Assembly (NCBI GenBank): GCA_016211945.1 | Contig: JACRHV010000008.1 | Span: 1-50,247, forward strand | Direction of reading: 5' to 3' | DNA from: Minisyncoccota bacterium | GTDB lineage: Bacteria > Patescibacteriota > Microgenomatia > UBA1400 > UBA12028 | DNA length: 50,247 nt | Shown here: in pieces, positions 14,485 through 25,280 of the stretch | How positions within the stretch are numbered: position 1 is the stretch's first letter | How the letters are laid out: every line of letters begins with the position of its first letter | Notes under the pieces: generated by a model | Told to the model about the DNA's origin: nothing | Databases searched by the model: none | What the model saw: the letters and a program-made list of their open reading frames with translations, nothing else | Program-made: the position numbers and the translations under genes

Positions 14485-14512
14485 TTGACATCCCTCCCAG
14501 ATTTGGTATTAT
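14485..14512 (+). promoter_or_regulatory. strong sigma70-type promoter TTGACA-N16-TGgTATTAT
   Basis: TTGACA at 14485-14490, TGG at 14504-14506, TATTAT at 14507-14512. Confidence 0.6.
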
Positions 14513-14559
14513 ACCCATTGCCTATGAACTCTTGAGAACTTGATCAAGTAGGGAACACA

Positions 14560-14589
14560 AACCTCGCTTGGTCGAGGTTTTCTTTTTTT
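14560..14589 (+). terminator. hairpin plus T-run (operon terminator or leader attenuator)
   Basis: aacctcg-cttggt-cgaggtt followed by ttctttttttc. It lies about 50 nt downstream of the promoter above and about 200 nt upstream of the 16S. Confidence 0.55.
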
Positions 14590-14644
14590 CAGAGGACCTC
14601 TTTTTCTGCACTATACGCCTTAAGCGGAGTAGCAATGAGAGTCG

Positions 14645-14656
14645 GCTCTTTAATAA
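14645..14656 (+). promoter_or_regulatory. boxA-like antitermination element
   Basis: GCTCTTTAATAA compared with the rrn boxA consensus TGCTCTTTAACAA. Confidence 0.5.
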
Positions 14657-14698
14657 ATGAACATGACATGAAGTCAGCCGCTTGCACAGTGGTGGGAA

Positions 14699-14708
14699 GC
14701 TCTTTAAC
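14699..14708 (+). promoter_or_regulatory. second boxA-like element in the 16S leader
   Basis: GCTCTTTAAC lies immediately after the 5' strand of the 16S processing stem (14678-14696). Confidence 0.5.
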
Positions 14709-14794
14709 GGAGTTTCTTTTCTTACTGCGCAAGCAATAATTTTAGTAAATTCCGTTAATTCTTTAAGTTAGATAAGAATCAAATTTCTTTTTTT

Positions 14795-22331: not shown

Positions 22332-23040
22332 AAATCGTTGCCATAGTAAAACTTGGCCAAATGCTGGAAAACCTGAGTATGTTGCGCTAGTTGAATTTGG
22401 GTAAATTTCGGGTATTATGAAAGTAATGTCCAAAATCCCACTTTTTACTGACAATGCGTCAACTGCAGAAAATCAGCAGGAAAGACTTATCTTTGCCGGA
22501 TGGATTGTTGGTTTTGTGGATGGAGAAGGGTATTTTGGTGTGAGTATTAATAGAAATTCAAAAACAAAGTTTGGATTTCAAATACTTCCTGAGTTCGTTG
22601 TAACTCAGGGGGCCAAAAGTCTTACTTCACTTGAAAAGATACGAGAATATTTTGGTTGTGGAAGAATTTTTGTAAATAAAAGACATGATAATCATAAAGA
22701 AGATCTTTATCGATATTGTGTTCGGAATTTGCATGATATTTCAACAATTATTATTCCATTTTTCAAGAAATATTCACTAAAAACAGCAAAACATCAGGAT
22801 TTTGTAAGATTTTCTAAAGTAGTTGAACAAATGATTCAAAAGAAACATTTTTCTTTTGAGGGAATAAACTCAATCGCTTTAGAATTACAAAAAAATTAGA
22901 TAAGAATCCTCAACGACTATACGCCAGGCTCCAAAAGGAGAAGATATAGTCTGAACTTATGGGCGACCATAAGAGTGTACTAATCATGATTACACCGGCG
23001 AAAGCTGCAACAAGAAAAGATTGATAAACCAATCTATATA
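22332..23040 (+). mobile_element. group I intron in 23S helix 69-71 region (position equivalent to E. coli U1931)
   Basis: The exon reads gtaactataactgttctatggt | agcgaagtaccttgtc. Intron GCCATAG (22340-22346) pairs with exon CUAUGGU, with U-G at the splice site. The aagatatagtc core is at 22941-22951. The last intron base appears to be A, not G. Confidence 0.75.
22417..22899 (+). CDS. LAGLIDADG homing endonuclease (single-motif, homodimer type), intron-encoded
   Basis: LIFAGWIVGFVDGEGYFGVSI motif, 160 aa, located in a peripheral loop of the intron. Confidence 0.85.
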   Translation: MKVMSKIPLFTDNASTAENQQERLIFAGWIVGFVDGEGYFGVSINRNSKTKFGFQILPEFVVTQGAKSLTSLEKIREYFGCGRIFVNKRHDNHKEDLYRYCVRNLHDISTIIIPFFKKYSLKTAKHQDFVRFSKVVEQMIQKKHFSFEGINSIALELQKN

Positions 23041-23703
23041 AGCGAAGTACCTTGTCACTTAATTGGTGACGCGCATGAAAGGTCCAACGAGTCTCAAGCT
23101 GTCTTGAACCATTACTCGGCGAAATTGAAATGGCTGTGAAGATGCGGCCTACTGACAGTAGGACAAAAAGACCCCGTGAAGCTTTACTACAACTTGGCAC
23201 TGATGTTTTATACGGAATTGTTGAGAATAGGCGGGAGTGCGTGCCGCAAGGTACGTACACCAGTGAAATACCGCTCGTTTTGCATAGAATATCTTACTTA
23301 TCATGGCTGCATACGCCATGGAGGACACTGTCTGGCAGGTAGTTTAACTGGGGAGGTTGCTTGCGAAAGGGTATCGCAAGCGCGCAATGGTATCCTTGGT
23401 CCGGATGGAAATCGGACTGGAAGTGCAATGGCAAAAGGATGCTTAACTGTGAGGCAAACAGGCCGAGCAGATGCGAAAGCAGGTCATAGTGATCCTCGTG
23501 TGCTTTGTGGAAGGCACCGGGCTTAACGAATAAAAGCTACTCCGGGGATAACAGAGTCATCGCGCCTAAGCGTCCCTAGCGACGGCGCGGTTTGCTACCT
23601 CGATGTCGGCTCATTGCATCCTGGGGCTGGAGAAGGTCCCAAGGGTTGGTCTGTTCGCCCATTAAAGCAGTACGCGAGCTGGGTTCAGAGCGTCGTGAGA
23701 CAG

Positions 23704-24523
23704 CAGTAATCAAAGAGGCATTACTGTCTCAGCTACAGAGTGACGTATTTGAACAATGAGGTTCTGTTATAAAAATATGTAGCTCCACAAAAAGATTTGT
23801 GGAATAAATCTGACTAAATGCTGGAAACCCTCGTAAATATGTACTTACTAGTATATAAACTATATACTAGTGAAAATAGTTCATCAATGACCGTATGGTT
23901 ACGCGAGACAATCAGCAGGAAAGACTATGAAAACAATACATGATGAATATTTTATCGGTTTTATCGAAGGTGAAGGATGTTTTTATGTGAGCGTTGTTCG
24001 GTCACAAGAAACGACTTCCGGTTGGCAAGTAGTTCATTTCTTTAAGGTATCTCAGAATCCGAGAGGGAGAACAGTGCTTCGTGCATTGCAGAAACGATTG
24101 GGTTGCGGATATATTAAAGCAAATGGATCACAATCCTCTTCTGATAAATCGTTAGCGTATGTGGTACGTAATATTCTTGATTTACAAGAGAAGGTTATTC
24201 CTTTTTTGAAAGGGAAATTAATTATCAAACAAGAAGATTTTTCTCGATTTGAAAAAGTTGTAGAAATCGTTTCATTAAAAGCTCATTTAAAAAAGAGTGG
24301 AATGAAATGTATTCTTGATCTTGCATTTCAGATGAATACGAAGCAAAGAAAATATACGCGAAAAGAAATACTATCATCGTTTTTATAGAATCCTCACAGG
24401 CCATATGTCAGACATTACGCAAATAGCGTATAAAGATATGGTCGGATCTCTCTAGTGATAGAGAGTGCGATTTGAAAACTAGAAATTGAGTCGCCGATGG
24501 TAGAAATACCAGTAACATACATG
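23704..24523 (+). mobile_element. group I intron in the 23S peptidyl-transferase region (after the gagacag block, about E. coli 2603)
   Basis: The exon reads cgtcgtgagacag | (g)tcggcctctatcc. The core motif aaagatatggtcgg is at 24432-24445. G 24523 is a possible omega-G. Boundaries are uncertain by 1-3 nt. Confidence 0.65.
23927..24388 (+). CDS. LAGLIDADG homing endonuclease (single-motif), intron-encoded
   Basis: DEYFIGFIEGEGCFYVSV motif, 153 aa. Confidence 0.85.
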   Translation: MKTIHDEYFIGFIEGEGCFYVSVVRSQETTSGWQVVHFFKVSQNPRGRTVLRALQKRLGCGYIKANGSQSSSDKSLAYVVRNILDLQEKVIPFLKGKLIIKQEDFSRFEKVVEIVSLKAHLKKSGMKCILDLAFQMNTKQRKYTRKEILSSFL

Positions 24524-24865
24524 TCGGCCTCTATCCACTGTCAGCGTTGGAAGTTTGAGGGAATTTGCTCCTAGTACGAGAGGACCGGAGTGAGGCAATC
24601 CCTAGTGTGTCTATTGTCGCTGTCAAGCGCACCGTAGAGTAGCTACATTGCTGTTGGATAACCGCTGAAAGCATCTAAGCGGGAAGCCGTCCCCAAGATT
24701 AAACTTCCCAATCAGATCCCTTGTAGATCACGAGGTTGATAGGCAACCGGTGTACACGTGGTGACACGTTAAGCCTAGTTGTACTAATAGATCGATTGAA
24801 CATAAACGATAACTCGTAAAACCATTGCATTCTCTTCACGTTGTCAAGGAGGGAAACCTCCTCGA

Positions 24866-24983
24866 TCCCGGTCTTTAGAGCGATGTGGTCCGACCTCTTC
24901 CCATTCCGAACAGAGTCGTCAAACGCATCAGCGCCGACAATAATGCCCCCGCGAGGGAGTGTGAAGATAAGTCAAGGCCGGGA
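24866..24983 (+). rRNA. rrf: 5S rRNA
   Basis: Helix I pairs tcccggtct with aggccggga. Internal ccattccgaacagagtcgtcaaacgcatcagcgccga matches the loop C-helix III consensus (CCCATGCCGAAC...AGCGCCGA). It is followed by a T6 run. Confidence 0.85.
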
Positions 24984-25016
24984 TTTTTTGTGAAAAAAAG
25001 AGGTAAGATACTTATA

Positions 25017-25280
25017 ATGGGAACTGTTGATGTAGAACATACGCTTGCGCAATATTTTAAAGGTGAGATCACAATATCTGATCTCAGAGATATTTTTTAC
25101 CACAATACTTGGATGTTACAAGAGGGACAGATGGAATATCTTCGCCAACTTGCCAGCAAGGATGATGAAAGAGAGAGAAGATTGGCAGCGGCAGGATTAA
25201 CACTTGATCAGGCGAGGGTACAAATGCTAACACAACAAATGACTATCGATGAATTTCGCCATCTCGTGTATGGTAATTAA
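25017..25280 (+). CDS. small hypothetical protein downstream of 5S
   Basis: 87 aa from ATG 25017, preceded by AAGAGG. The longer track ORF (24885) overlaps the 5S gene. Confidence 0.4.
   Translation: MGTVDVEHTLAQYFKGEITISDLRDIFYHNTWMLQEGQMEYLRQLASKDDERERRLAAAGLTLDQARVQMLTQQMTIDEFRHLVYGN

Follow-up and report, generated by a model that had tools for sequence, protein, structure and literature searches.

Is a ribosomal RNA (rRNA) locus still one operon when protein genes, two of them antisense, stand between its 16S and 23S genes? The question is raised by the single rRNA locus of a Minisyncoccota bacterium (GTDB lineage Bacteria; Patescibacteriota; Microgenomatia; UBA1400; UBA12028), which lies at positions 14,485 to 25,280 of contig JACRHV010000008.1 (GenBank assembly GCA_016211945.1). 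The source genome, 908 kb in 16 contigs from a groundwater metagenome, has its only 16S gene here, and the window that we have analysed is this one entire contig of 50,247 bp, read on the forward strand. We put at about 70% the probability that an ancestral operon has been dismantled in place into three RNA units, namely 16S, tRNA-Ile and leader-tRNA-Ala-23S-5S, the third with likely leader-peptide attenuation.

All RNA genes, as detected by Rfam and ARAGORN, are on the plus strand: 16S, tRNA-Ile(GAU), tRNA-Ala(UGC), 23S and 5S. A preliminary description of the sequence had noted that this order is kept over 10.5 kb, and that protein genes stand between what look like separate transcription units for 16S and for 23S-5S. 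The order is as described, and every feature listed there has been found in its place. The 16S-23S spacer (16526 to 20370) has a length of 3,843 bp and an unremarkable G+C content of 0.39–0.43, and it contains seven open reading frames (ORFs), two of them antisense. The separation of 16S from 23S-5S is supported by the antisense genes, at least two intrinsic-terminator hairpins, a processing stem and a boxA for each rRNA, and conserved promoters before tRNA-Ile and tRNA-Ala (Table 1). The boundaries, on the other hand, have to be redrawn, as the second unit appears to begin upstream of tRNA-Ala, at the promoter 19660-19688, and not at the boxA of the 23S, while tRNA-Ile likely forms a third unit.

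By script-based scoring, a promoter, a terminator and an ORF of 11–26 codons have been found upstream of tRNA-Ala in 24 of the 33 genomes of the order, in ten families. Among 600 random windows taken from the same loci as controls, by comparison, 7 show a promoter plus a terminator, and 4 show the ORF as well. Across the order, the module consists of a sigma-70 promoter (147–280 nt upstream of tRNA-Ala in these 24 genomes), a leader of 102–151 nt, and an intrinsic terminator ending 1–94 nt before tRNA-Ala. It is also present in G022, whose entire spacer is 469 bp. In the first set of leaders, all 13 hold one ORF of 16–24 codons, with its start 11–39 nt from the predicted transcript start; in dinucleotide-shuffled leaders such an ORF occurs at 2.5–21.5% (mean 13.6%). 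The genomes added later have leader ORFs of 11–23 codons.

The leader sequence is not conserved between families, but the length and the position of the ORF are. The leader peptide is conserved within families only (MFT...RS in family f1a, ML.NQIT in family f9). In the group of the window it reads MFT...(E/G)RS, and the codons of F2, T3 and S14 show synonymous changes. Among the window and two relatives, G009 and G006, the promoter, the Shine-Dalgarno (SD) sequence, the start region and the terminator are invariant or compensated. In addition, we have compared the window with a close relative represented by a contig from a different study (run X2). Leader and tRNA together show 2 differences in 303 positions, against 119 in 766 for the adjacent bPH gene.

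A terminator-like hairpin before tRNA-Ala had been described previously. It does exist and is conserved in relatives, with changes in the stem, but it belongs to the conserved leader, and transcription would have to read through it. No second promoter match has been found between the leader terminator and tRNA-Ala in the 24 genomes with the module. Since the 1–94 nt at this place leave little or no room for another promoter, tRNA-Ala, 23S and 5S are probably reached by read-through. In G013, the upstream genes have a separate terminator just before the leader promoter, which indicates that the leader terminator does not serve upstream genes.

The leaders also contain a candidate antiterminator. 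In the RNAalifold consensus of seven family leaders, the GGAG inside the ORF is paired with the 5' arm of the terminator, and in most leaders the best partner of this arm is either the SD or the 3' part of the ORF. Separately, we have observed that nearly all the terminators in the tRNA-Ala leaders (L004-L016, L046-L074; window 19817-19831) have a CUCC/GGAG stem, resembling an anti-SD/SD pair.

The 16S has a leader of its own. Scored with the criteria of the tRNA-Ala leader scan, a promoter with a following hairpin/T-run is present before the 16S in 7 of 12 genomes and in 4 of 500 controls, and three further genomes show it by eye. Relatives also have a promoter at the position equivalent to the 16S promoter of the window. 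The two hairpins in this leader (14559-80 and 14574-600) are mutually exclusive and are generic GC stems. After the 16S, the T-run hairpin of the preliminary description is present at 16664-16687 and is likely the terminator of the 16S unit. In G006, G033 and G015, a clear terminator follows the 16S directly before the tRNA-Ile promoter; at this place the window has the hairpin 16664-87 together with a TATAAT at 16692-97. Both small ORFs (16720 and 17054) lie between this TATAAT and a second, TG-extended −10 box, TGATACAAT, which had been noted before as the own box of tRNA-Ile and is confirmed here. In 9 of 14 genomes the pattern TGnTAnAAT occurs at a distance of 19–36 nt upstream of tRNA-Ile, which is probably a third transcription unit.

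Both rRNAs have their own processing signals, as had been claimed. In the 16S stem, 14678-14696 pairs with 16617-16635 with one mismatch and one G-U, and the pairing extends outward (14660-68 with 16650-58). The duplex of the 16S flanks reaches −83.1 kcal/mol versus −45.1 ± 5.6 for shuffles, about 7 standard deviations below the shuffle mean. In the 23S stem, 20284-20304 pairs with 24828-24849 with one A.C and one bulge, and the stem extends further. Its duplex energy is −48.9 versus −17.9 ± 3.8 kcal/mol for shuffles, about 8 standard deviations below the mean. The two boxA-like elements of the 16S leader (14645 and 14699) and the one in the 23S stem (20281-20292) are likewise in place. The pattern GCTC[CT]TTAA[CT] has six matches on both strands of the 908-kb genome, three of which are these sense rRNA leader sites (14645, 14699 and 20281). 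The genome encodes RNase III (rnc; PF14622, 7.4e-32), NusB (5.6e-25) and Rho (1.4e-25; window 28919-30376), so the stems and the boxA elements have their usual partners. The nusB and rnc genes adjoin each other (genome contig C8:71124-72046).

The layout is not peculiar to the window. We have compared 13 relatives of the same order with 16S and 23S on one contig, which makes 14 genomes with the window. Their spacers are 469, 1,183, 1,607, 2,222, 2,440, 3,363, 4,269, 4,383, 4,968, 5,195, 7,437, 10,634 and 15,485 bp long, and 11 of the 13 contain ORFs of at least 60 codons. The order 16S, Ile, Ala, 23S is kept in all 13, with tRNA-Ile inverted in three, and nine further relatives have 16S and 23S on separate contigs. 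The distance from tRNA-Ala to 23S is always 34–467 nt in the 14 genomes, and the expansion is found in the 16S-Ile and Ile-Ala gaps. The breaks in the operon fall at the same points in the whole order, and tRNA-Ala remains joined to 23S. Since this layout is the rule in the clade and has already been published for the Candidate Phyla Radiation (CPR), it is less unusual than the preliminary description implied.

That description had also considered that the contig may be chimeric at the spacer junctions, and it is not. The source run has an independent Logan contig that matches 16497-20869 with 0 differences, and the X2 contig contains tRNA-Ile, 2H, bPH, leader, tRNA-Ala and the 5' end of 23S in the same order. 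The same synteny is seen in G006, G009 and G007, which represent three other genera. Overall, the locus is neither an oddity nor an assembly error, and the stretched layout is ordinary for CPR.

Table 1 Features of the rRNA locus and its spacers in the window.
Feature	Position	Strand	Remarks
Predicted 16S promoter	14485..14512	+	TTGACA, 16 nt, TG-extended TATTAT; 11/12 consensus match, the best of the region
16S leader, two overlapping hairpins	14559..14605	+	T-run after each; between promoter and boxA
Two boxA-like elements	14645-14656, 14699-14710	+	Motif rare in genome
16S processing stem, 5' strand	14660..14696	+	Pairs with 16617-16658
16S rRNA gene	14789..16526	+	Rfam 1339 bits
Probable group I intron in 16S, without ORF	16223..16479	+	About 257 nt, ends approximate; Rfam Intron_gpI 27.9 bits; absent in G033
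16S processing stem, 3' strand	16617..16658	+	Pairs with 14660-14696
Post-16S hairpin and short T-run	16664..16687	+	−14.5 kcal/mol
Small ORF, 105 aa	16720..17037	+	Codon-usage score 0.134
Small ORF, 91 aa	17054..17329	+	Strong AGGAGG SD; codon score 0.276
Predicted tRNA-Ile promoter	17345..17353	+	Extended −10 box TGATACAAT; TGnTAnAAT conserved upstream of tRNA-Ile
tRNA-Ile(GAU)	17371..17443	+	Rfam, ARAGORN
Small protein with two transmembrane (TM) segments, 87 aa	17450..17713	-	ATG overlaps 2H stop as ATGA
2H phosphoesterase (LigT/ThpR-like), 170 aa	17710..18222	-	Pfam 2_5_RNA_ligase2, 1.3e-10
DUF304/bPH_2-like membrane protein, 199 aa	18246..18845	+	Matches clusters named DUF304/bPH_2
Bestrophin-like (DUF4239) membrane protein, 257 aa	18861..19634	+	Pfam 5e-31
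Predicted tRNA-Ala-23S-5S promoter	19660..19688	+	TTGCAT, 17 nt, TACAAT; invariant in alignment with G009 and G006
Predicted leader RNA, about 143 nt	19695..19837	+	Four elements; 5' hairpin first
Leader SD	19716-21	+	AAGGAG, before the 18-codon mini-ORF
Leader mini-ORF, 18 codons	19729-19785	+	TTG start
Leader long helix	19724-39 / 19797-812	+	
Leader internal AGGAGC	19765-70	+	Complementary to terminator 5' arm
Leader intrinsic terminator (predicted)	19813..19837	+	CTCCC/GGGAG stem and T6; −12.8 kcal/mol; 29 nt before tRNA-Ala
tRNA-Ala(UGC)	19867..19940	+	Rfam, ARAGORN
Small ORF, 86 aa	19957..20217	+	Inside tRNA-Ala-23S unit; codon score 0.246
23S leader	20229..20304	+	Conserved hairpins, boxA-like 20281-20292, 5' strand of 23S stem 20284-20304 (extends to 20340)
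23S rRNA gene, two probable group I introns	20370..24810	+	Rfam 1997 bits; 3' end approximate
23S intron 1	22333..23040	+	LAGLIDADG ORF 22417-22899, Pfam LAGLIDADG_1 1e-24; Rfam Intron_gpI 27.4 bits; gap versus G033
23S intron 2	23704..24522	+	LAGLIDADG ORF 23927-24388, Pfam 1.6e-17; Rfam 35.7 bits; absent in X2 relative and G033
23S processing stem, 3' strand	24816..24849	+	
5S rRNA, then T6 (predicted end of unit)	24867..24990 (5S 24867-24983)	+	Rfam 61 bits
Small ORF after 5S, 87 aa	25017..25280	+	Codon score 0.188

If the locus were still one long operon, a single precursor would run from the 16S promoter to 5S, the internal promoters would be mere boosters, and the plus-strand ORFs would ride on the pre-rRNA. 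Such an operon would fit the order and the strand of the RNA genes, kept in 14 of 14 genomes. It would also fit the 19957 ORF, which has no promoter of its own. The boxA antitermination could take the polymerase through the hairpins, and E. coli rrn operons also carry a second boxA in their spacer. However, it is difficult to reconcile a single precursor with two convergent antisense genes that abut tRNA-Ile, with the conserved post-16S terminators of the relatives, with spacers of up to 10–15 kb and an inverted tRNA-Ile in three genomes, or with 16S and 23S on different contigs in nine relatives. Strong conserved promoters precede tRNA-Ile and tRNA-Ala even where the spacer has 469 bp. We consider a single operon very unlikely.

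The 143-nt element before tRNA-Ala could instead be an independent small gene, encoding a small RNA or an 18-aa peptide, with tRNA-Ala-23S-5S transcribed from an unrecognised promoter or through unregulated, leaky read-through. Its promoter and terminator do enclose a compact unit, its minimum free energy (MFE) fold is a stable rod of −48 kcal/mol, and the near-invariance towards the X2 relative would also suit a functional RNA. A gene of this kind is nevertheless unlikely. What is conserved between families is the length and position of the ORF and not the sequence, the element has no Rfam family match, and in 24 of 33 genomes it stands directly (1–94 nt) before tRNA-Ala-23S; a further promoter match is lacking there, and several genomes would have no space for it. 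Hardly credible is a recent accident, in which the spacer would have been stretched by insertion of a mobile element at its tRNAs or by a chimeric assembly. The large serine recombinase beside tRNA-Ile in the G006 spacer, the three window spacer genes missing in the close relative and the sporadic occurrence of the bestrophin-like gene in the phylum are what one might cite for it. Yet the synteny of 2H, bPH, leader, tRNA-Ala and 23S is common to independent contigs and four genera, expanded spacers occur across the order, and the window spacer contains no recombinase, no tRNA 3'-end repeat and no unusual G+C content. In addition, its cargo is recent only in part.

The division into three units, and the attenuation in particular, also meets contrary observations. 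The post-16S hairpin of the window is followed by only four T's, and families f7 and f18 do not have the tRNA-Ala leader module. The MFE fold of the window leader keeps the terminator, the antiterminator has just 5 bp, and the duplex z-scores are weak in the subfamily of the window (−0.4 to 0), because there are three copies of GGAG. Conserved regulatory codons are missing from the mini-ORF, its peptides differ between families, and its start is TTG in this subfamily; RNA structure alone could account for the conserved start-codon nucleotides. Moreover, since the 16S leader has a hairpin/T-run but no comparable ORF, a mechanism independent of translation, such as pausing, nucleoside triphosphate sensing or a protein factor, could serve both leaders.

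With these points in mind, we propose the following scheme for the three units. What the analysis shows is the sequence features, how far they are conserved and how much commoner they are than in controls; which promoters are used, where transcription ends, how the rRNAs are processed, and in which direction and to which signal the switch responds is deduced. Unit 1 would run from the promoter at 14485 through the leader hairpin/T-run, boxA and 16S to the hairpin at 16664-87. Unit 2 would be tRNA-Ile, transcribed from its own extended −10 box. Unit 3 would start at the promoter at 19660, and would comprise the 143-nt leader with the 18-codon mini-ORF and the intrinsic terminator, tRNA-Ala, boxA, 23S, 5S and a T-run. 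RNase III probably excises each rRNA at the stem that flanks it, and the untranslated transcript is probably shielded from Rho by boxA/NusB. To transcribe tRNA-Ala, 23S and 5S, the polymerase would always have to pass the leader terminator, for which leader-peptide attenuation is the most likely mechanism. In the antiterminator, the CUCC of the terminator 5' arm would be bound by a GGAG-type segment (the 3' part of the mini-ORF, or the SD). Ribosomes on the GGAG segment would free this arm, so that the terminator could form. As ribosome occupancy would thus favour the terminator, ample translation capacity would lower the synthesis of 23S, 5S and tRNA-Ala. Since the units would be autonomous, the gaps between them should tolerate insertions. 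They hold the old divergent 2H/bPH pair and lineage-specific cargo (the bestrophin-like gene, the small TM protein and four small ORFs).

We also put forward, as a tentative extension that may well prove wrong, that an attenuator with a translated mini-ORF gates 23S, 5S and tRNA-Ala throughout the order. Free ribosomes would then feed back directly on the transcription of their own large-subunit RNA, replacing the lost co-transcriptional stoichiometry of 16S and 23S, and the highly transcribed gaps might be landing or birth sites of lineage-specific small genes. If the leader is an attenuator, it would be a simple answer to the problem of subunit balance in organisms that transcribe 16S and 23S separately. 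It would likewise suggest how ultra-small bacteria with few regulators set their ribosome output.

Whether the inserted genes are conserved in sibling spacers, a comparison that the preliminary description had proposed, has a divided answer, as the 2H/bPH pair is kept while the remaining cargo is variable. The annotation of the inserted genes given there has held, i.e., two minus-strand genes (a small TM protein and a 2H phosphoesterase with a 2_5_RNA_ligase2 match) and two plus-strand membrane proteins (DUF304/bPH_2-like and bestrophin-like). G006, G009 and metagenome loci likewise have 2H next to bPH. The bPH protein of the G006 spacer shares 68% identity with that of the window, and in G009 the pair stands beside the leader. 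The pair is old, and only part of the cargo is recent. The X2 relative is cleanly without the small TM ORF (17445-17709, with a joint from 17444 to 17710), the bestrophin-like gene (18848-19640), the 19957 ORF (19944-20224) and 23S intron 2. The bestrophin-like gene is missing at the locus in G006, G009, G007 and the X2 relative, with other small ORFs at its site in G007, and across the phylum only 8 of 401 genomes have it, with a best identity of 27%. The spacers of other relatives encode Dus, a NUDIX protein, an AAA ATPase or unknown proteins.

We have also considered, and rejected, that 2H/bPH might be functionally tied to the rRNA locus, because most metagenome relatives have the pair at a distance from rRNA genes; the bPH protein itself has 29 such relatives, most of them away from rRNA loci. 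As a divergent pair with a gap of 23–64 nt, 2H and DUF304/bPH_2 are found in many CPR contigs (e.g., L017, L018, L025, L034, L040 and L041), mostly away from rRNA, which hints at a functional couple. The recombinase in the spacer of G006, the closest genus, is a large serine recombinase of 464 aa with Resolvase, Recombinase and Zn-ribbon domains (L006:7667-9061). Integration targeted to tRNA genes was considered as well and rejected, since the cargo of the window and of G006 is flanked neither by duplicated 3' ends of tRNA-Ile or tRNA-Ala nor by long direct repeats.

The four small ORFs (16720, 17054, 19957 and 25017) are open, as had been claimed, and are probably real lineage-specific genes. 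Their codon scores are 0.13–0.28, compared with 0.165 ± 0.073 for real genes and 0.01 and −0.09 for antisense control ORFs. In an index of 5.8 billion proteins, whose search requires shared 5-residue words so that distant relatives may escape, the 16720 and 19957 ORFs match nothing but themselves and the 17054 ORF has no homologue; the first two have no match in 150 genomes of the order either. For the 25017 ORF, an exhaustive HMMER search returned itself and one weak match (E 2e-4). This match is a 1,014-aa protein aligned in four stretches, as if 25017 resembled a repeat unit. Single-sequence AlphaFold models of the 16720 and 19957 ORFs are all-helical, with a mean predicted local distance difference test (pLDDT) score of 56 and 52, respectively, too poor for use.

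We have also considered that the small ORFs are paralogues, and rejected this, as all-against-all BLASTP and shuffled Smith-Waterman comparisons gave nothing robust. The lone pair with z = 4, the 16720 ORF and a 76-aa ORF of G006, has no BLASTP alignment. The 16720 and 19957 ORFs share 18 of 19 identical nucleotides (16934-16952 and 20168-20186; peptide EIERI) at similar relative positions, and their proteins are not detectably related; 16720 and 17054 share the start ATGGCAGAA. The 19957 ORF is absent in the X2 relative and G009, and the site is occupied in G006 by an unrelated 76-aa ORF. If the 19957 ORF is expressed, processing of the tRNA and cleavage by RNase III would free its message from the precursor.

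Both rRNA genes are interrupted by introns, and because of them Rfam misplaces the 3' ends of both genes. The true 3' end of 16S is at 16526, with the anti-SD tail ending CACCTCCTTTCT, while the Rfam call stops at 16244. The 3' end of 23S is set by helix 1, in which 20369-77 pairs with 24801-09, and the Rfam end at 23756 is wrong. The mature 16S and 23S, with about 1,481 and 2,912 nt, are of normal size. The intron limits come from the alignment to the intron-less G033, and the insertions interrupt conserved rRNA and are absent in relatives. Their group I covariance scores (35.7, 27.9 and 27.4 bits) are all under the gathering score of 50. We note that Rfam forces the full large- and small-subunit rRNA models onto truncated spans, and that automatic annotation would leave the 3' exons as intergenic. 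For these lineages, amplicon methods that use the spacer or span the operon should fail or mislead.

Elsewhere in the window, tRNA-Ala(GGC) and tRNA-Ala(CGC) stand in tandem at 32612-32780, which is 7.6 kb downstream of the locus. At 40005-50246, the minus strand has a reading frame of over 3,400 codons that continues past the contig end.

The locus layout itself is of a published kind, and the value added here is the map of units and the conserved leader before tRNA-Ala-23S-5S. Brewer et al. (bioRxiv 10.1101/705046) have listed Patescibacteria among the clades with unlinked rRNA genes, and Lui et al. 2021 (PMC8172020) have found rRNA genes unlinked in 27 of 34 circular CPR genomes. With a 16S-23S distance of 3,843 bp, the window lies beyond the limit of 1,500 bp used by Brewer et al. 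It also belongs to type D of Lui et al. (PMC8172020, Fig 3; same strand, >2 kb, opposite-strand genes between), with its minus-strand genes at 17450-17713 and 17710-18222. The window shares with these CPR loci a same-strand spacer above 1,500–2,000 bp, tRNAs and protein genes in between (some on the opposite strand), a small genome and a single copy. Those two studies, however, classify by distance and strand only, whereas here the gene order is kept while the spacer length varies 30-fold, and promoters, terminators and leaders have been mapped by comparison as predicted unit boundaries.

Compared with the rrn operons of E. coli (P1/P2 promoters, boxB-boxA-boxC leader, tRNA-Ile/Ala spacer, spacer boxA and RNase III stems), the window has the same gene order on one strand, boxA-like elements before 16S and 23S, long flanking stems, and nusB and rnc. 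It differs in the spacer protein genes on both strands, the predicted internal promoters and terminators, the promoter-proximal hairpin/T-runs and the three probable group I introns. A canonical single transcript has no internal terminators or antisense genes; by sequence, the window has both. Among small or unusual genomes, those of Thermus, Buchnera, Wolbachia, Borrelia and Mycoplasma are cited in PMC8172020 as having 16S in one operon and 23S-5S in another, similar to what we propose for the window. As far as they are cited there, the genes are usually distant and synteny is lost, while in the window they stand in order within 10.5 kb, with tRNA-Ala welded to 23S.

In the literature that we have searched, no description of a leader-peptide attenuator for rRNA was found. 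With the known leader-peptide attenuators trpL, pheL, hisL and thrL and the translation-sensing leader of pyrBI, the leader shares a promoter, a short ORF (11–24 codons) with an SD, an intrinsic terminator just before the genes to be regulated, and a segment at or in the ORF that is complementary to the terminator 5' arm. Unlike them, it precedes stable RNA genes (tRNA-Ala, 23S and 5S) and not an amino-acid operon, it has no run of regulatory codons, and its peptide varies from family to family. The likely signal here would differ as well, being the availability of ribosomes rather than one charged tRNA.

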